Source: Eledone cirrhosa (lineage: Eukaryota). From it: 64,000 bases of DNA. The stretch spans positions 220,782,001 through 220,846,000 of the forward strand of contig OZ024741.1 in the NCBI GenBank assembly GCA_964016885.1, read 5' to 3'. The position numbers and the translations under genes are program-made. Below are positions 16,668-61,520 of the stretch, piece by piece. The notes under the pieces were generated by a model, which worked only from the letters and a program-made list of their open reading frames with translations, was not told the DNA's origin and made no database searches. Numbering within the stretch: position 1 is the first letter of the stretch; each line of letters begins with the position of its first letter.

Positions 16668-16730
16668 TATATATAAAATAAATATAAATATAATATATAT
16701 AATATAATATATATATATATAAAATATAAA

Positions 16731-16935
16731 TAGGAACGAGTAGGACCCCGACGGCTGAGCTCAAGCCGTTTCAGGGCTAATTCTGGACTAAATTTAGTCC
16801 AGAATTATCCGTCGAAACGGCTTGAGCTCAGCCGTCGCGGTCCTACTCGTTCCTATGACCCACTCTACTACCCTAAGTATTGAGTACTCTGGTGCGTTAT
16901 AGTCCACCTGGTTCCTTGCCACATTTCCTTCGTTA
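16731..16935. mobile_element. Family A fold-back PLE terminus in (TA)n
   Basis: Arm 16731-16793 is the reverse complement of ~16794-16856. It contains the 3' half of the family A hammerhead (GAAA CGGCT TGAGCTC AGCCG TC). Confidence 0.8.
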
Positions 16936-18457: not shown

Positions 18458-18755
18458 AGGAACAAGTAAGACCCCGACGGCTGAGCTCAAGCCGTTTCGA
18501 CGGCTAATTCTGGACTGAATGAAAATTTATTCTGGTATTTAAATAGCCGAGCTTATCAATATATGAAATTACCCCTTGATAAGCTCGGCTATTTAAATAC
18601 CAGAATAAATTTTCATTCAGTCCAGAATTAGCCGTCGAAACGGCTTGAGCTCAGCCGTCGGGGTCTTACTTGTTCCTATTACCCACTCTACTACCCTAAA
18701 TATTGTGTACTTTGGTGCGTTATGGTCCACCTGGTTCCTTACCACATTTCCTTCG

Positions 18756-18760
<5 letters not shown>
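18458..18760. mobile_element. Family A fold-back PLE terminus in (TA)n
   Basis: 18458-18559 is the reverse complement of 18576-18678, followed by a tail ending ttcgttata(TA)n. Confidence 0.85.
18571..18664 (+). ncRNA. Type I hammerhead ribozyme with U3-A8 variant core (family A)
   Basis: ACCCC-TTGATAA-[G..CGGCTA...TAGCCG.C]-GAAA-CGGCT TGAGCTC AGCCG-TC-GGGGT. GUC site at 18657-18659. Confidence 0.75.
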
Positions 18761-20543: not shown

Positions 20544-21712
20544 ATGGCTAACCAGCAAAAATCCAAACAGAACTGGTCTGATAATGAAATCGACATTCTA
20601 ATAAACACATGGCATTGCCTTACCCAAACAGAAGACATAGATGCTTCATGTCTGAACGACATTGCTAAACGTACAGTTCAACTTTTGAAAACTCGATCTG
20701 AACAACAGATTCAAAATAAATTAAAGCAAATCGAAATTGCTTTTAAATTAATCAATAAACATTTGGATAAACTACGGTGTGTTTTTTCTTCGAATACTGT
20801 CCAGCAGCAGCAACAACAACAACAGCAGCTACAACGGCAACAATAACAACAGCTACAACAGCAACAACAACATCAACAACAGCAACAACAACAACGACAA
20901 CAACAACAACAGTGTGAACCACTCCTTGATTCATCAACAATGGCCGATCTACTAAATGAAACTATTGACCTCCCAGTAGCCTCTGTCTCACAGCAGGAAA
21001 CGCCACATCCTTCTCTGGCCCAGCAGTCCAATCATCACCACTGCCAACATCTTCTCTGCCTACTACTACTACTACTACTACTACTACAACATCTTTGGCT
21101 ACTGCTATTTCAAGGAATTTACCTTCTAATACCAGAACAAGAACTCTCCCTCCCACAGTCCACAAAGGTCGTCAAATCCTACTCAAACCATCATCTACAC
21201 CTCTCACAACACACACACCCACATACCCACCCACTCGAAACCCCATTATTTGCCGCTACTCTCTACGCTATAGAATATGTACGGATAGTGGCTGCAAATT
21301 CACCCATTTACCTAGGACAAAACGATCTATCCCCACAAACAGCGACCACCATAATACATACTCTAATTTAACACCAACACAACCACCAATAACTCAAACA
21401 AGGAATCCACAAATCTGCCGCTTTTCCCTGCGAGAGAGATTGTGTTTAGACCGGGATTGTCCCTTTACCCATATCCCGGGGACCCGTCGGACAAATGAAA
21501 ATAAAATTAAAAATAAAAGCAAAAACAAAAACCATAACCTACATAAAAATAACCACTACCACAGTCACCAACAGTCTTCTAAACAGGAAACTTCTTCCTC
21601 TTTTTTAGCCATAATGAATCTGGCAAAAGAACTGGAAAAAAACATTCGAGCTATCACCCAGCACCACCCTCCACTATCACCCCACTGCACAAACTCCCAT
21701 TGCTGCCATTAA
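20544..21712 (+). pseudogene. LINE ORF1 remnant: Myb/SANT-like N-terminus and two CCCH zinc fingers
   Basis: MANQQ...NWSDNEIDILINTW...RSEQQIQNKL; CRYSLRYRICTDSGCKFTH and CRFSLRERLCLDRDCPFTH. Broken by stops and frameshifts in CAA/CTA repeats. Confidence 0.7.
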
Positions 21713-24700
21713 CAAACAAACAAATTAACAACACACCAAAACAATTAAAACCACCCACTCTCGCCTCTACATTTTTGCTTAACGCCCAAGGCATCAGCCC
21801 TTCCACCAATACTCAAAAATGGAAGATCAAATTCCTGGAGGACTGGATTGATGTCCATCCAAACCACATCCCTTTCTTCGTCCTCACTGAAACCCATCTC
21901 AGTAACCTCCACTTGGAAGCCGAGGTGAAAGTGAAAAATTTCAAAGCCATCCGTGCTGATCGCGCTGGCAGAAGAAAGGGCGGGACTGCCATTTATGTCC
22001 ATAATTCTTTCTCAACAGAGGCTATGAACATATTCACTAATGGATACTGTGAAGTAGTCACTGTATTCAGTCAAACCAACAACCTAATAGTAGTTGGGCT
22101 CTATAGGCCACCCCAAACGCCTGTACCATGCTTCAAGGAATGCCTCAACAGCATAAAGTGTTTCATCCAAGAGTGTCACCCTGACAACATCTTAATGCTG
22201 GGGGACTTCAACCTCCCCGGAGTTGACTGGTCCACAAACAGCCTGCCACCAGGTTCTTCTGCCTCAACCTCTGACAGGGAAGCAGTGGAATCGCTTCTTG
22301 ACTTCATGGATGATTTCTTCCTATCCCAACTGGTGCTCGAACCAACGAGGTGCCACAAAAACGTCCTAGACTTAATTTTCAGCAATCACACTGACAATAT
22401 CAACAATATTGCAGTGGAGAAAATTCTACTCTCTGATCATGACATGGTTCTCTGTGATCTGAGATTCCACCGTCCAATATACAAACCCAATGTCATCTCT
22501 CCTGTCCATCCGTTTGACGCTATGGATTTCCACAATGCAAACTGGGAAGCGATCAGTCATGATCTTGCACATGTCGACTGGTCCTTCACGCACACTCATA
22601 CACCCACTAACATCAAAATGTCCTGGCAGACATTTGGGGACACTGTTACAAACATATGTGCAACACACACCCCATTAAGAACTATAAACAAATCTAAGAG
22701 CAGAATCCCTAGAAATAGAAAAACACACATCAGAAAAATTAAGAGAACGAACAAAAAAATCAACAAGCTGAAATACTGTCAGCAGCAACACATCAACTTG
22801 ACTGCCATTTCATCACTAGAGATTAAAAAACATAACCTCCAAAACAACATAATGTCCCTCATCAACAATCAGAGAAGAGCTGAAGAGGCCTGGGCCATTG
22901 AGAAGATCAAACTCAATCCCAAAGTGTTCTTTTCATTTGCAAAAAAACACAAAATCACTGGTTCTACTGTTGGCCCTCTAATTGATGAAAATGGCACTCT
23001 TCAAGACAATGCTAAAACCATGGGTGAGATACTGCAGAAACAATACTGCTCTGTTTTCAGCAATCCTGATATGGCCGATCTGGGCTGTATCGGCGATGTT
23101 ACTCCCCATTACACCTTATCGGACATAACGTTTTGGCGCCCCTGATGTCTTAGCGGCAATAAAGGAAATCAAGCATAATTCAGCAGTAGGTCCCGATAGG
23201 TTCCCTGCTTGTGTCTTGAAGGCGTGTCAACACCAACTTGCATCTCCTCTTGCCAATCTGTGGCGGAACTCACTGGATGCTGGATATGTGCCAGAAAACC
23301 TTCTATCCCAGTCTGTTGTCCCAGTTTTCAAAAAGGGAAACAAATCCCTTGCCGTGAATTACCGTCCAATCTCACTCACCTCTCATATCATTAAGGTATT
23401 TGAGAGAGTGGTGAGATCGCGAATGACCCACTTCCTTGAGAGTAACAATATGCTGAACTCCAACCAGCATGGATTCCGTAATGGAAGGGATTGCCTGACG
23501 CAGCTACTGCATCACTTTGATGACATTTTGAGAGCCTTGGGAGAGGGTTCCAACACTGATGTTATCTACCTTGATTTCAGCAAGGCCTTTGACAGGGTTG
23601 ATCATAACATTCTACTGAAAAAGCTATCCAATATTGGTGTCACTGGAAAGCTGCTGCAGTGGATCAAGAGCTTCCTGTCAAATAGAACCCAAGATGTTGT
23701 AGTTGAAGGAGTCAAATCCAGCCCAGCCAAAGTCAGTAGTGGGGTCCCACAAGGCACTGTGTTGGGCCCACTTCTCTTCATCATCTATATTAATGACATC
23801 ACTGACATCATCAAACACAGCAACATTAAAATTTTCGCTGATGATTCCAAGCTCCAAAAGGTCATCAATGGCGTGGATGACCGGATAAGCCTTCAGTCAG
23901 ACCTACTGGCTGTTACCCAATGGGCGGAAAAGAACAACATGTTACTGAACGAAGACAAATTCGAACTGATCCACTTTGGAAAAGAGGATGCTCTGAAACT
24001 CCCGTACTCCCTTCCCTCCGGGGAAACTCTCGTGGCATCTAACAACATCAGAGACTTGAGAGTAACCGTGGACAGCAACATAAGCTGGGCCACGCATATA
24101 AGCAGCAAAGTTGACATGGCCCGCAGAATGTGTTCCTGGATCCTCAGAACCTTCCAGTCGAGAGATTCCCACACCATTATCCTTCTCTTCTCTACTTTTG
24201 CCCGACCACACCTTGAATACTGTTGTCCACTGTGGTCTCCCCACACGAAACAAAGTATCATGAAACTTGAAGCTCCTCAAAGGGCAATCACGAAAAAGAT
24301 AGATGGCATGTCAGACCTTGACTACTGGGGTCGACTAGAAAACCTGAAACTTTACTCACTCCAACGTCGCCGTGAGCGTTATATTATCTGCATGATGTGG
24401 AAAATGTTCCATCATCACTGCCCAAATGATGTTGGCATCGCCTTCAAGATACACCCAAGGCTTGGGCCCCGTGCTGTCCGTCCCATTCAAAAATCTAAAT
24501 CGCAACTCATAACAACAATACGGCACAATTATTTCACCTCAATCGGCCCTGCTCTCTTCAACATCACACCAGGACACGTCAAAACAGAAACTGACCACAC
24601 AAAATTCAAGAAGTCTTTGGACAAATTCCTCCAAGTAATCCCGGACAAACCACCCACACCCGGATATGTCTTCGCAAACAGTAATTCTCTTCTCGAATGG

Positions 24701-24721
24701 GCCATGGTGCCCAAATCCTGA
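21700..24721 (+). pseudogene. LINE ORF2, apurinic endonuclease plus reverse transcriptase, with one frameshift near 23133
   Basis: APE motifs LTETHL, GGTAIYV, YRPP, GDFN, LDLIF and SDHD. RT motifs NYRPISLTS, QHGFR, YLDFSKAFD, GVPQGTVLGPLLF and FADDSK. Confidence 0.93.
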
Positions 24722-27736: not shown

Positions 27737-28112
27737 ACTTTCACCGTATTTTTTTTTACTAAAGAAATTTTATTCTGATAATGGGGTTTAGAACCCTCAG
27801 ATAAATGGAAAAAGATGAGTATTGATGTACATGGTGGTCGAACCCACATCTTTGGTTATCCGGACCACTGTGCTACCATTACCCTAACACATCACCCATA
27901 CATAAATGTGGGTGATGTGTTGGTGTAATGGTAGCACAGTGGTCCGGATAACCAAAGATGTGGGTTCGACTCCCATGTACATCAATACTCTTTTCCCCTT
28001 TATCTGAGGGTTCTAAACCCCATTATCAGACTAAAATTTCTTTAGTGAAAAAAAAATACGGTGAAAGCTATTCTATTTCTAATTTCAAACCTGCTCACTA
28101 TTTCAAAACATA
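27737..28112. mobile_element. Family D fold-back element containing two inverted tRNA-like cassettes
   Basis: 27737-27900 is the reverse complement of ~27907-28068. The tail is shared with 38760-38975 and 54545-54833. Confidence 0.82.
27914..27984 (+). tRNA. tRNA-like cloverleaf (anticodon-position GGA, probably non-decoding); inverted copy at 27823-27893
   Basis: Acceptor GATGTGT/GTACATC+A, D arm GTGT-AATGGTA-GCAC, anticodon arm TGGT-CCGGATA-ACCA, T arm GTGGG-TTCGACT-CCCAT. A-box TGGTGTAATGG, B-box GGTTCGACTCC, and a T-run about 6-10 nt downstream. Confidence 0.72.
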
Positions 28113-28129
28113 CCCAACTACACCTCTCA

Positions 28130-28508
28130 AAGTCAATGACACACGACCGTGACTTCTGGCGTCACGCAGTAATACAGGGTACCCGACCTCCCATGGGTAC
28201 ATGCTGAAGCATATAAACAATATGCCCCCCCCCCCCACCGCAAGGTGGTCGTGGAGGTGCCACGGCAAAAAAGCACCCAGCCCACACTGTAAAGTGGACG
28301 TGTAGGCGCCACGAAAAAGCACCCAGCACTCACTGTAAATGAGGTTGGTGTTAGGAAGGGCATCCAGCTGTAGAAATCAAGCCAGATCAGTTCCTGTATG
28401 AGCAAGGCATGGTCAGCCGACCAGACACTGCCCACAACAGGACAACCCGTCTAACCCATGCTAGCGTGGAAGAACGGACGTAAAACGGTGATGATGATGA
28501 TGATGATG

Positions 28509-28510
<2 letters not shown>
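28130..28510 (+). mobile_element. Cephalopod SINE body with an RTE-type 3' tail ending (GAT)n
   Basis: gttaggaagggcatccagctgtagaaa...aacccatgctagcgtggaagaacggacgtaaaacg(gat)n. The tail is shared with 63520-63630 (-). Confidence 0.75.
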
Positions 28511-33389: not shown

Positions 33390-35320
33390 TTATTTGCCAA
33401 GTAGCGTATGCCAAAGGTACTCGATACTAGTGCCGGCAGTATTAAATATTCGAAGTGTTAATATTTAGTGGGCTAGAGAATTAGCAGAGCGTAAGCACGT
33501 GGGAAAGTAAGAAATCGGAGAATAGACCGTTAAAACATATTTATTTAAAACAGCACCTACGTACGTTTCGCCCGGTTGGTCTTCTCAGGGGCATAAATAA
33601 TCAAAAGTGTTCCTTACGTTGCTCGGAAAGAGTTTTTCGGGTTAAATCTACGTCAAGGTTCATTGCTCGCAAAAATAGCCTGTTTTGATTTTGCAGCAGG
33701 TCAAGGGAGGTAACTCTGGCCGGTGTTAGGGCAGTCTTTCCCGGACACATTTTTTTTATCCGCTACGAGATTAGGTTACAACCTTACCATTGTCGATACG
33801 CATGTAATCAACGCTTATTTTGAGAGTTTGTTTTGCTGCATCTGTTTGTCTGAGTCGTTTGAGGCTGGGTCTGATATGCAAGGATAGTTTCCTGGGTGTT
33901 CTTTTGCAGCACCTGCCCGCCGGGGTGTTAAGACTTGTTGCAGGGAGATCCGGTGCACGGTTTCACTCCTCATCCTTAACCCATCTGAAGAAGGATATTT
34001 TTAAGCGATGTGTACAACTTATCGCTGTTTCAGCTCTGCTGTTGATTAGCTCGTGGGGTGCAGTTATGATGTGGTAGAGCTCCATGAGGCAAAGATCGCA
34101 TTTCCTCTTGAAGTTGTACGGTGCAGCCCTGCCGACAATATTCCAGTGCGTGGAGAAGCTGATGTTTAAGACCTTTAGTGATGTGATGTAATCCGCGAGC
34201 GAAGTGGAGTCTCTTGTTTTTTATTTGTGAAAGAGTGGAGCTGTGTTCGAAACCTAATTTTGAACGGGCCGGAGGTAGCCCCTATATAATGTTTAACGCT
34301 ATTGTGGCTAGTTATAGTGCATCTATATATAACCCTATCAGTCAAGCAGTATCCTCTAAGGGGGCAGCGTCCTCTGTCACGGTTCCGTCTATTTCCCACG
34401 GTAAGGCTATCATTGTTACTGCCTACGTTGTTACCCACGCTACCGCAGCTGTCGTTAGCACCATTACAACCCACAGCACGCGGGGTGGTGCGATTGTTAT
34501 TCCACACGTCATGTCCTGTATGTTCGCCAGTCATTTCGCGGTTATGCTGGTTACGTCTGCGGATGCCGTTGCCAACACTATTGGATGCTGCCAGGGAGTT
34601 GTTAAGACACTCCACTTCGCTCGTGGACTACATCACATCGCTAAAGGACTTAAACATCAGCTTCTCCACGCACTGGGATATTGTCGGCAGGGCTGCACCG
34701 TACAACTTCAAGAGGAAATGCGATCTTTGCCTCATGGAGCTCTACCACATCATAACTGCACCCCATGAGCTCATCAACAGAAGAGCTGAAACAGCGATAA
34801 ATTGTACACATCGCTTAAAAATATCCTTCTTCAGATGGGTTAAGGATGAGGAGTGAAACCGTGCACCGGATCTCCCTGCAACAAGTCTTAACACCCCGGC
34901 GGGCAGGCGCTGCAAAAGAACACCCAGGAAACTATCCTTGCATACCAGACCCAGCCTCAAACGACTCAGACAAACAGATGCAGCAAAACAAACTCTCAAA
35001 ATAAGCGTTGATTACATTCGTATCGACAATGATAAGGTTGTAACCTCATCTCCTGGCGGATAAAAAAAATTTGTCCGTGAAAGACTGCCCTAACACCGGC
35101 CAGAGTTATCTCCCTTGACCTGCTGCAAAATCAAAACAAGCTATTTTTGCGAGCAATGAACCTTGACGTAGATTTAACCCAAAAACTCTTTCCGAGCAAT
35201 GTAAGGAACACTTTGGATTATTTATGCCCTCGAGAAGCCCAACTGGGCGAAACGTACGTAGGTGCTGTTTTAAATAAACATGTTTTAACGGTCTATTCTC
35301 CGATTTCTTACTTTCCCACG
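33390..35320 (-). mobile_element. Family H Naiad-type Penelope-like element: GIY-YIG region plus pLTR, with a ~710-bp inverted duplicate
   Basis: The minus ORF has CPLRGYCLTDRVIYRCTI...HYIGATSGPFKIRF. The inverted copy 34608-35320 encodes TSLVDYI...HWDIVGRAAPY...CDLCLMELYHII...LINRRAE...CTH. 33500-34212 is the reverse complement of 34608-35320. Hammerheads at 33553-33592 (-) and 35226-35265 (+). Confidence 0.88.
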
Positions 35321-38537: not shown

Positions 38538-38540
<3 letters not shown>

Positions 38541-38720
38541 AAAAAGTATGACCCCCGACGGCTGTTTCTGGACTGAAATAGCCGTCCAGAAATAGCCGTC
38601 GAAACGGCTTGAGCTCTGCCGTCGGGGTCATACTTTTTCCTATTTCCCACTCTACTACTCTAAGTATTGAGTACTCTGGTGTGTTATGGTCCATCTGGTT
38701 CCTTACCACATTTCATTTGT

Positions 38721-38723
<3 letters not shown>
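38538..38723. mobile_element. Family A-variant fold-back terminus in (TA)n
   Basis: aggaaaaagtatgaccccgacggc / gccgtcggggtcatactttttcct arms, GAAA CGGC...GCCG TC, and the same tail as the other A copies. Confidence 0.8.
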
Positions 38724-38759
<36 letters not shown>

Positions 38760-38762
<3 letters not shown>

Positions 38763-38972
38763 TAAATATGTTTTGAAACAGTGAACAGGTTTGAAATTAG
38801 AAAATAGAATAGCTTTCACCGTATTTTTTTACTAAAGAAATTTTAGTCTGATAATGGGGTTTGGAACCCTCAGATAAATGGAAAAAGATGAGTATTGACG
38901 TATGTCAATACTCATCTTTTTCCATTTATCTGAGGGTTCTAAACCCCATTATCAGATTAAAATTTCTTTAGT

Positions 38973-38975
<3 letters not shown>
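38760..38975. mobile_element. Family D fold-back element in (TA)n
   Basis: Arms centred on gagtattgac-gtat-gtcaatactc. Confidence 0.82.
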
Positions 38976-39020
<45 letters not shown>

Positions 39021-53964: not shown

Positions 53965-53966
<2 letters not shown>

Positions 53967-54500
53967 CGGAGGAAATGTGGTAAGGAACCAGGTGGACCAT
54001 AACGCACCAAAGTACTCAATACTTAGGGTAGTAGAGTGGGTAATAGGAACGAGTAGGACCCCGACGGCTGAGCTCAAGCTGTTTCGACGGCTAATTCTGG
54101 ACTAAATGAAAATTTTTATCCTGGTATTTGAATAGCCGAGCTTCTCAAGGGGTAATTCCATATATGGTAAAAGTGATTGTCACAAGGATTGGTAAAAAGT
54201 TTGTTGTTGAGACATAATAATTCTATCATGGCAATTTGTGGAGGGAGGGGGTAGCTGAACCTGCCAGTAGATGAAGGTGGGAGAGGGGGTGGAGGAGACC
54301 CAGTCATGCGTTGATAGTGCCAACTTCAGCTGGGCAGAGGTCAAAGAAGATACTAGGGAGGGGGGGAAGTATCACTTTTACCATATATGGAATTACCCCT
54401 TGAGAAGCTCGGCTATTCAAATACCAGGATAAAAATTTTCATTTAGTCCAGAATTAGCCGTCGAAACGGCTTGAGCTCAGCTGTCGGGGTCCTACTCGTT

Positions 54501-54505
<5 letters not shown>
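53965..54505. mobile_element. Family A fold-back PLE terminus, longest copy, with two hammerheads (54058-54153 -, 54395-54490 +)
   Basis: ~135-bp arms (54043-54177 vs 54371-54505). Core ACCCC-TTGAGAA-G...GAAA...GTC-GGGGT. Confidence 0.85.
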
Positions 54506-54544
<39 letters not shown>

Positions 54545-54550
<6 letters not shown>

Positions 54551-54827
54551 AAATATGTTTTGAAACAGTGAGCAGGTTTGAAATTAAAAAAATAGAATAG
54601 CTTTCACCGTATTTTCTTTACTAAAGAAATGTTAGTCTGATAATGGGGTTTAGAACCCTCAGATAAATGGAAAAAGATGAGTATTGTACGTCAATACTCA
54701 TCTTTTTCCATTTATCTGAGGGTTCTAAACCCCATTATCAGACTAACATTTCTTTAGTAAAGAAAATACGGTGAAAGCTATTCTATTTTTTTAATTTCAA
54801 ACCTGCTCACTGTTTCAAAACATATTT

Positions 54828-54833
<6 letters not shown>
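54545..54833. mobile_element. Family D near-perfect ~290-bp palindrome in (TA)n
   Basis: Arms appear identical by eye around the centre gagtattg-tacgt-caatactc. Confidence 0.88.

Positions 54834-58360: not shown

Positions 58361-61520
<3,160 letters not shown>

Follow-up and report, generated by a model that had tools for sequence, protein, structure and literature searches.

The window is the whole stretch of DNA analysed here, 64,000 nucleotides from Eledone cirrhosa. It contains three copies of a fold-back repeat, family D. Unit coordinates are those of a natural period at another locus (L022:1246-1505) and count the first base of a tRNA-like head as position 1. All three copies align to this single unit, which bears out the common layout proposed in the initial annotation. 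The unit span visible in them is -6 to about 206 only.

The longest copy begins with an inverted arm on the minus strand (about 27734/27737..27899). This arm aligns to the unit from 157 back to -6 and has its left end in (TA)n. It contains a decayed inverted cloverleaf (~27823-27893, minus strand). A 9-nt filler forms the apex between the arms (27900..27908). The right arm, on the plus strand, aligns to unit -5 to 200. It starts with 5 nt of leader (27909..27913, unit -5 to -1), and its 5' end lies within the head-proximal cluster described below. The tRNA-like head follows, with A and B boxes (27914..27984, unit 1-71), and is called by ARAGORN and Rfam. Next come a trailer with a T run (27985..28002), which in tandem copies is predicted to supply the 3' strand of a 19-bp helix formed with the leader, and the tail (28003..28113, unit about 93-200). 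Two short hairpins lie in the tail, as do the AT/TA sites at which most copies terminate. At its right end the copy adjoins another element, not (TA)n. That element (28114-28510) ends in (GAT)n, and its tail looks, by eye, like the tail beside an RTE-like RT frame at a further locus (L421).

The second copy lies at about 38761..38977. It consists of head-to-head arms from unit 205-65 and 64-141, with the apex at the T-stem/acceptor hot spot. The third copy lies at about 54547..54831, with arms from unit 206-66 and 63-206 and the apex at the same hot spot. It is a perfect palindrome, with an arm identity of 284/284. Both copies are flanked by (TA)n on both sides. They contain no head because the apex sits at unit 63-66.

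The assembly searched was 3.0 Gb. The family D unit is 260 bp long, or 290 bp in one subfamily. It contains the tRNA-like head, a T5 run and a tail that runs back into the next head. The unit is self-closing: position 260 is followed by position 1, with an exact 260-bp period in the reference locus, and there is no internal segment. This junction is exact in every array. Exact-pattern searches of the genome gave 322 matches to a 34-mer, 1,678 to a tail 20-mer and 1,166 to a head 23-mer. A 28-mer of the 290-bp subfamily had 834 exact matches, and a spacer 22-mer had 325 with one mismatch allowed. These counts are lower bounds, and the reversed-pattern controls all gave 0. Family D is thus a genome-wide family, with thousands of pieces in TA microsatellites. 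A relative of the tail (unit 72-145) with 70% identity, probably older and with no head visible, occurs at L194:2795-2864.

The unit contains no ORF. It had been suggested that D might be the pLTR of an autonomous element. The unit is self-closing, and no common ORF-bearing extension was found in 60 pattern matches: 30 of 30 tail-selected and 30 of 30 spacer-selected matches stay within the closed unit. The pLTR suggestion is thus not supported.

Tandem arrays have 2-29 units. Three long, satellite-like ones were found (L218, L338 and L339), with about 26, 17 and 29 units. Within an array the units resemble one another at ~85%; dimers and trimers are duplicated locally, and the 3' ends are those usual for the family. 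We rejected the idea that the arrays are copies of one master, as they are not mutually collinear and their units are ~85% alike. They are read as old insertions enlarged by unequal exchange. Matches to the head pattern are skewed between strands (446 versus 720), which suggests one more large array. tRNA finders would list the three arrays as tRNA-Ser clusters.

Insertions were described from 111 loci, found with two patterns and followed in genome order. These gave 107 distinct insertions, or 105 after two segmental duplicates were removed. There were 62 head-to-head insertions, 39 single arms and 4 complex forms. Most copies are without the head. The 3' ends fall at a few internal AT/TA-like microhomology sites about 50 nt apart. 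By BLAST position they are at 216 (61 ends), 162 (16), 170 (15), 204 (13) and 157 (11), where position 216 represents a true end at ~210 plus a TA microhomology. Among these insertions 131 of 163 3' ends adjoin TA, in line with the initial report of (TA)n at most junctions; in the window the exception is the right end of the longest copy. Target site duplications are not readable in (TA)n flanks. The arms of one insertion share rare alleles above the level of random pairs (15 shared and 218 unshared, versus 45 and 7,671).

These features bear on whether D is an ordinary LINE-dependent tRNA SINE with secondary tandem and palindromic forms. The head is tRNA-derived and carries A and B boxes, and bivalve SINEs are known in tandem and palindromic structures, although PMC11481361 puts the share of bivalve SINEs in such structures at ~3% or less. 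The insertion signature largely refutes this reading already. In the 105 insertions we saw neither a fixed 3' end nor a tail of poly(A) or simple repeats. The 3' ends are several and internal, no LINE-type tail was seen, single arms make up only 39 of 105 insertions, and most copies are headless. That D is an ordinary SINE is highly improbable. The cloverleaf is also no one-off insertion; 174 heads or arms of the family were scored.

The search for a hammerhead agreed with the initial annotation. Core descriptors match at most 28 of 263 D units, none with a GAAA closing stem II. The same core descriptor does find the hammerhead of an autonomous Penelope-like element (PLE) of this genome. An Rfam hammerhead search of D was negative; Rfam also missed the hammerhead of the autonomous PLE, so it is blind to minimal forms here. 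A minus-strand near-core at unit ~119-85 (U3-A8 form, 13 of 34 D1b arms) was rejected, with no GAAA after stem II.

A PLE fragment joined directly to one D copy led to the young autonomous family. The chimeric locus could be a nested insertion and is a lead only. The autonomous family is very abundant, with 119 scored matches at 88-100% identity. It is represented by L320-L325, for example L320:3021-6791 on the minus strand. Its open frames of 1,070-1,257 codons contain RT motifs, a DKSG motif, a CX4CxxC linker plus a GIY-YIG-like region at the C terminus. The terminal repeat carries a hammerhead core. Its insertions have 5' inversions and two 3' ends, with TA following in 37 of 43. Pfam does not recognise the full frames and gives a sub-threshold RVT_1 match on one fragment, so assignment of the element as Neptune-type rests on motifs, as described in PMC8557442, and on layout. 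A Neptune-type partner for D appears likelier than a Naiad, because Naiads are reported in PMC8557442 as old remnants in cephalopods. In the window there are two large inverted repeats, at 58545-61367 (2.8 kb, 87%) and 33498-35320 (718-bp arms, 96%), the second of which holds GIY-YIG-like fragments. An APE/RT LINE at 21583-24721 has two long frames and a single break.

The TA targeting, head-to-head arms, partial tandems and internal 3' ends of D match those of the autonomous PLE. The initial proposal of a PLE-mobilised, tRNA-headed element is supported on these grounds, and D is very probably mobilised in trans by a PLE. Published work on PLEs describes how they insert into (TA)n in tandem and inverted form, gives MRC1 as an example of their non-autonomous head-to-tail derivatives, and reports Naiads and most Chlamys as lacking a hammerhead (PMC8557442). 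In vitro, PLE RT primes internally and extends both strands, and hammerhead cleavage is dispensable (PMC11167929). No significant sequence is common to D and the one PLE family compared. In 752 kb of flanking DNA, no D-matching sequence was found beyond two D-like fragments. Three D motifs were absent from one supplementary file of PMC8557442, and two from one file of PMC13282606.

The head of the longest copy was called as tRNA-Ser(GGA) by ARAGORN (27913-27985). It scored 48 bits against Rfam RF00005 (gathering score 29, E 3.5e-7). The A box, B box, short variable loop and CCGGATA anticodon loop reported earlier are all present in the sequence, as is the downstream T run (T4 at 27991-27994). 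The earlier claim of a 71-nt cloverleaf with four paired arms stands as far as the ARAGORN and Rfam calls go; several of its pairs are G-U, and the top pair of the anticodon stem is G-A, as in 160 of 173 heads. Folded alone, the 72-mer gives no MFE cloverleaf, and its stability does not exceed that of shuffles (z -0.36). Nor does the cloverleaf show covariation, with changes on both sides in 2 of 3,648 pair cells. C33, seen here in the CCGGATA loop, occurs in 4 of 174 heads and is a sporadic mutation. Most heads have CTGGATA, and one subfamily has CGCGATA.

We split 174 arms into six subfamilies by diagnostic letters. The T arm differs at 0 of 17 positions across them; the D arm served as search anchor and is unscorable. 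Two positions of the anticodon loop, four in the acceptor ends and 24 of 120 in the tail differ. The anticodon loop is altered in one subfamily, and the acceptor ends are altered without compensation in another. This pattern of conservation suits a promoter or an elbow, not a decoding tRNA. Traits of functional tRNAs are missing: one subfamily has G33, position 37 is T, and a Ser anticodon sits on a short variable loop. The D head is no working tRNA. ARAGORN nevertheless called 138 distinct D heads in the fetched loci as tRNA, mostly Ser(GGA), and D heads inflate tRNA gene counts.

The head matches tRNA-Gln of the same genome at 46-49 of 71 positions, against 38-44 of 71 for the few other isotypes retrieved. 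The comparison took in Gln, Thr, Ile and repeat-borne heads only, and the Gln search was aimed, so the assignment of tRNA-Gln as closest relative is weak. A tRNA-Gln-like gene with a CTA anticodon lies within a tRNA-Gln cluster at L412:991-1062. Ten of the 16 Rfam tRNA matches returned for the genome belong to a separate AT-rich repeat, which is dispersed and holds an internal tRNA that is mostly called as Ala-GGC. In this repeat (L093, L095-L103, around 1500 in each) the tRNA lies ~330 bp from a hairpin end, which often adjoins TA. It may be a rolling-circle derivative that has captured a tRNA.

Unit 242-260 is complementary to 74-92, forming the predicted 19-bp helix of leader and trailer with 15 Watson-Crick and 4 G-U pairs. 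The helix has z -3.0 in D1 and z -2.6 in D2, and whole-unit circular folds have z -3.0, -2.2 and -1.0. It would bury the T5 run and extend the acceptor stem, and a monomer of 1-260 would have its 3' end beside its 5' end. The helix probably began as a fold-back duplication. ADAR editing was considered as the origin of its G-U pairs and rejected, as there is no A-to-G excess (9 of 1,100, versus 18 of 1,540 for T-to-C, in 110 arms).

The four G-U pairs form on the tRNA-sense strand only. They bear on the reading of D as a DNA-level element with a captured tRNA gene, either a rolling-circle Helitron/Helentron derivative or a MITE. Exact head-to-tail multimers and TA flanks, both seen in D, occur in rolling-circle and Tc1-type elements too. 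However, D has no fixed termini or terminal inverted repeats, and the arms of its palindromes are of unequal length and stop at several sites inside the unit. Pairing of the long helix on a single strand points to RNA. We consider a DNA-level element very unlikely.

A T5 or longer run is kept in 154 of 174 arms, and the longest window copy has T4 after a 3-nt deletion. Genuine tRNA genes of this genome end in T4-T12. T5 is therefore a normal terminator length here, and most Pol III transcription should end short of the priming sites, which is the chief objection to a pure Pol III template.

The 5' ends were scored on the further-reaching arm of 101 insertions. Forty-five stop at unit 61-63 (2.3 expected), which is the 3' strand of the T stem. 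Twelve are at unit 1-8 (2.1 expected) and four at unit 32. A modified base, m1A58, was considered as the exact stop; it would lie at unit 57, and only 2 of the 101 ends fall at 55-58. The T-arm stop is unchanged for arms primed at 216, 204, 170 and 162, and for TA joins and arm-to-arm joins. In D2 it is looser, with 12 of 26 ends spread over 56-68. It accounts for 90 of 126 first passes in the tail-selected sample; over all loci the figures are 107 of 310 first passes and 7 of 54 later ones. This drop speaks against a tRNA-specific roadblock.

Near the head, 211 arms were scored. There are 24 ends at -8..-4, 14 at -3..-1, 10 at +1..+3 and 12 at +4..+9, with 5 at -12..-9, 0 at -20..-13 and a mode of -6. 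The ends range from -11 to +8, and their upstream edge is sharp. Pol III transcripts have short, purine-initiated leaders. A Pol III start at purine -6 fits the head-proximal ends better than a +1 cut does. An AT microhomology at -6/-5, or aborted jumps across a +1 cut, could mimic the -6 pattern. In 120 of the 211 head-bearing arms the sequence continues upstream of the head for 56 nt or more, so that a Pol III monomer would be shorter than many of the templates.

A 5' hot spot also occurs where no tRNA is present. A TA-targeted control family of tRNA-free PLE termini lies in the window at 16728-16935, 18459-18756, 38540-38722 and 53966-54502. It has 10,256 exact matches and two 3' ends 77 nt apart, and only the 3' half of a hammerhead-like core is visible. 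Its 5' hot spot is sharp, with 33 of 43 arm ends inside 14 nt, so a 5' hot spot needs no tRNA. The tRNA part of D may thus be a passenger on Pol II read-through templates mobilised by a PLE, with generic early RT stalling and AT microhomology producing the hot spots. In keeping with this, both hot spots of D fall on AT dinucleotides (unit 62-63, 2-3 and -6/-5), stops are biased to the first pass, and T5 speaks against Pol III templates. Yet no stops occur at many other AT/TA sites and 4-mer palindromes. The stop also keeps its RNA position irrespective of the 3' end and is found again in D2, and the T arm and boxes are constant across subfamilies while the tail diverges. We regard a passenger tRNA as rather improbable.

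The tRNA mimic may instead act in place of a ribozyme, as the initial annotation had proposed. The element would be PLE-mobilised, and host RNase P would cut multimers at the mimic. The unit RNA ends would then adjoin, giving circle ligation or an in-register template jump. The predicted helix, which would extend the acceptor stem as the leader-trailer stem of MALAT1 does, is the main remaining support for processing of RNA ends. First-pass stops fall near the head in 16 of 28 cases. In D2, where the first two acceptor pairs are broken and the boxes are the same, 2 of 30 ends are near the head. The exact 260-to-1 junction of all arrays also agrees with such cutting. Against it, the ends at -8..-4 lie past a +1 cut and outnumber those at +1..+3, with the peak at -6. 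No RNase Z-site signal was found, as read indirectly from DNA copies (2 of 101 5' ends at 69-75, 7.3 expected), and no acceptor-stem covariation. MALAT1 requires a bulge located 5' of the cut (PMC8457004), but the D1 helix has its bulge on the 3' side. The helix may also be left over from an ancient fold-back duplication. In favour of the earlier proposal are the excess of 5' ends near the head, which is real, and the helix. That a tRNA mimic takes the place of a ribozyme, with RNase P cutting multimers, is in our judgement possible but unlikely. A stronger form is equally doubtful: D would be a ribozyme-free retrozyme in which mimic and helix recruit RNase P and nicked-circle unit RNAs are copied by the Penelope RT round the junction, and the 5' truncation map would record tRNA-type folding or modification of the germ-line template.

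On balance we favour a reading of D as a non-coding, hammerhead-free, non-autonomous retroposon that is probably copied by a TA-targeting PLE RT/GIY-YIG protein and would use its head as an internal Pol III promoter. Against this reading, no sequence is shared with the tested PLE, T5 is kept, many templates exceed a Pol III monomer, D2 has few ends near the head despite the same boxes, a tRNA-free terminus has a hot spot of its own, and the T-arm stop is weaker on later passes. RNA would be made from ~6 nt upstream of the head by Pol III leaking past T5, or by read-through of tandem arrays. The PLE endonuclease would nick (TA)n, and the RT would prime internally in the tail, at about unit 155-215. 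On the first pass the RT would usually stall in the T arm, or reach the RNA start near -6, or enter the upstream unit. The second target end would be joined by short microhomology, or would prime a second, inverted arm to give a head-to-head copy. Some insertions would later expand by unequal exchange to arrays of 17-29 units.

Family D is real and abundant, and very probably a non-autonomous, Penelope-dependent retroposon of an unusual sort with a tRNA-derived head. In the literature searched, with Repbase, Dfam and subscription papers outside the search, no account of a tRNA-headed, hammerhead-free element mobilised by a PLE came to light. Repeat libraries may list D as an unclassified SINE. 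Its 260-nt template, on which hundreds of 3' priming sites and 5' stops can be read, is a compact substrate for asking how PLEs generate tandem and inverted insertions and what is recognised by their RT.

Several known systems resemble D in part. The non-autonomous PLEs described in PMC8557442 (MRC1 and other non-autonomous Chlamys) are likewise non-coding and hammerhead-free. They form head-to-tail multicopy, pseudo-LTR-like tandems and have microsatellite targets. D differs from the non-autonomous Chlamys families in its complete tRNA-like head and in having no 3' similarity to the one autonomous family tested. Neptune-type PLEs and Naiads, in the same account, share with D the (TA)n targeting, inverted 5' copies and alternative 3' ends in the tail; they encode RT and GIY-YIG, whereas D encodes nothing.

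The schistosome Sm-alpha element has a tRNA-Gln-related head, tandem organisation and thousands of copies, as does D, and its transcription by Pol III is reported (PMC6765202, PMC2770079). Sm-alpha is described there as having an active hammerhead, while D has none, targets (TA)n and is mostly head-to-head. Metazoan non-LTR retrozymes are small, non-autonomous, self-closing tandem units like D. According to PMC7229834 they are defined by a type I hammerhead and circular RNAs shown experimentally; D is without a hammerhead.

MALAT1 mascRNA resembles D in having a tRNA-like fold on a leader-trailer stem, with a purine-rich leader and a U-rich trailer. Its leader-trailer stem promotes RNase P cleavage, and cleavage by RNase P and Z has been demonstrated (PMC8457004). 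The copies of D give no RNase Z signal and an ambiguous RNase P signal. Helenus TRIMs, like D, carry a tRNA-like sequence, read as a Pol III promoter, in a non-autonomous retroelement that is not a SINE. As described in PMC10886601, Helenus has two LTRs, a PBS, a PPT and 4-5 bp target site duplications. D has no LTRs, PBS or PPT, and has variable ends and no internal segment. SINEs are by definition parasites of LINEs, and with Helenus tRNA-bearing parasites of LTR elements have recently been described. D looks like the counterpart in a third class, a tRNA-headed parasite of Penelope-like elements.
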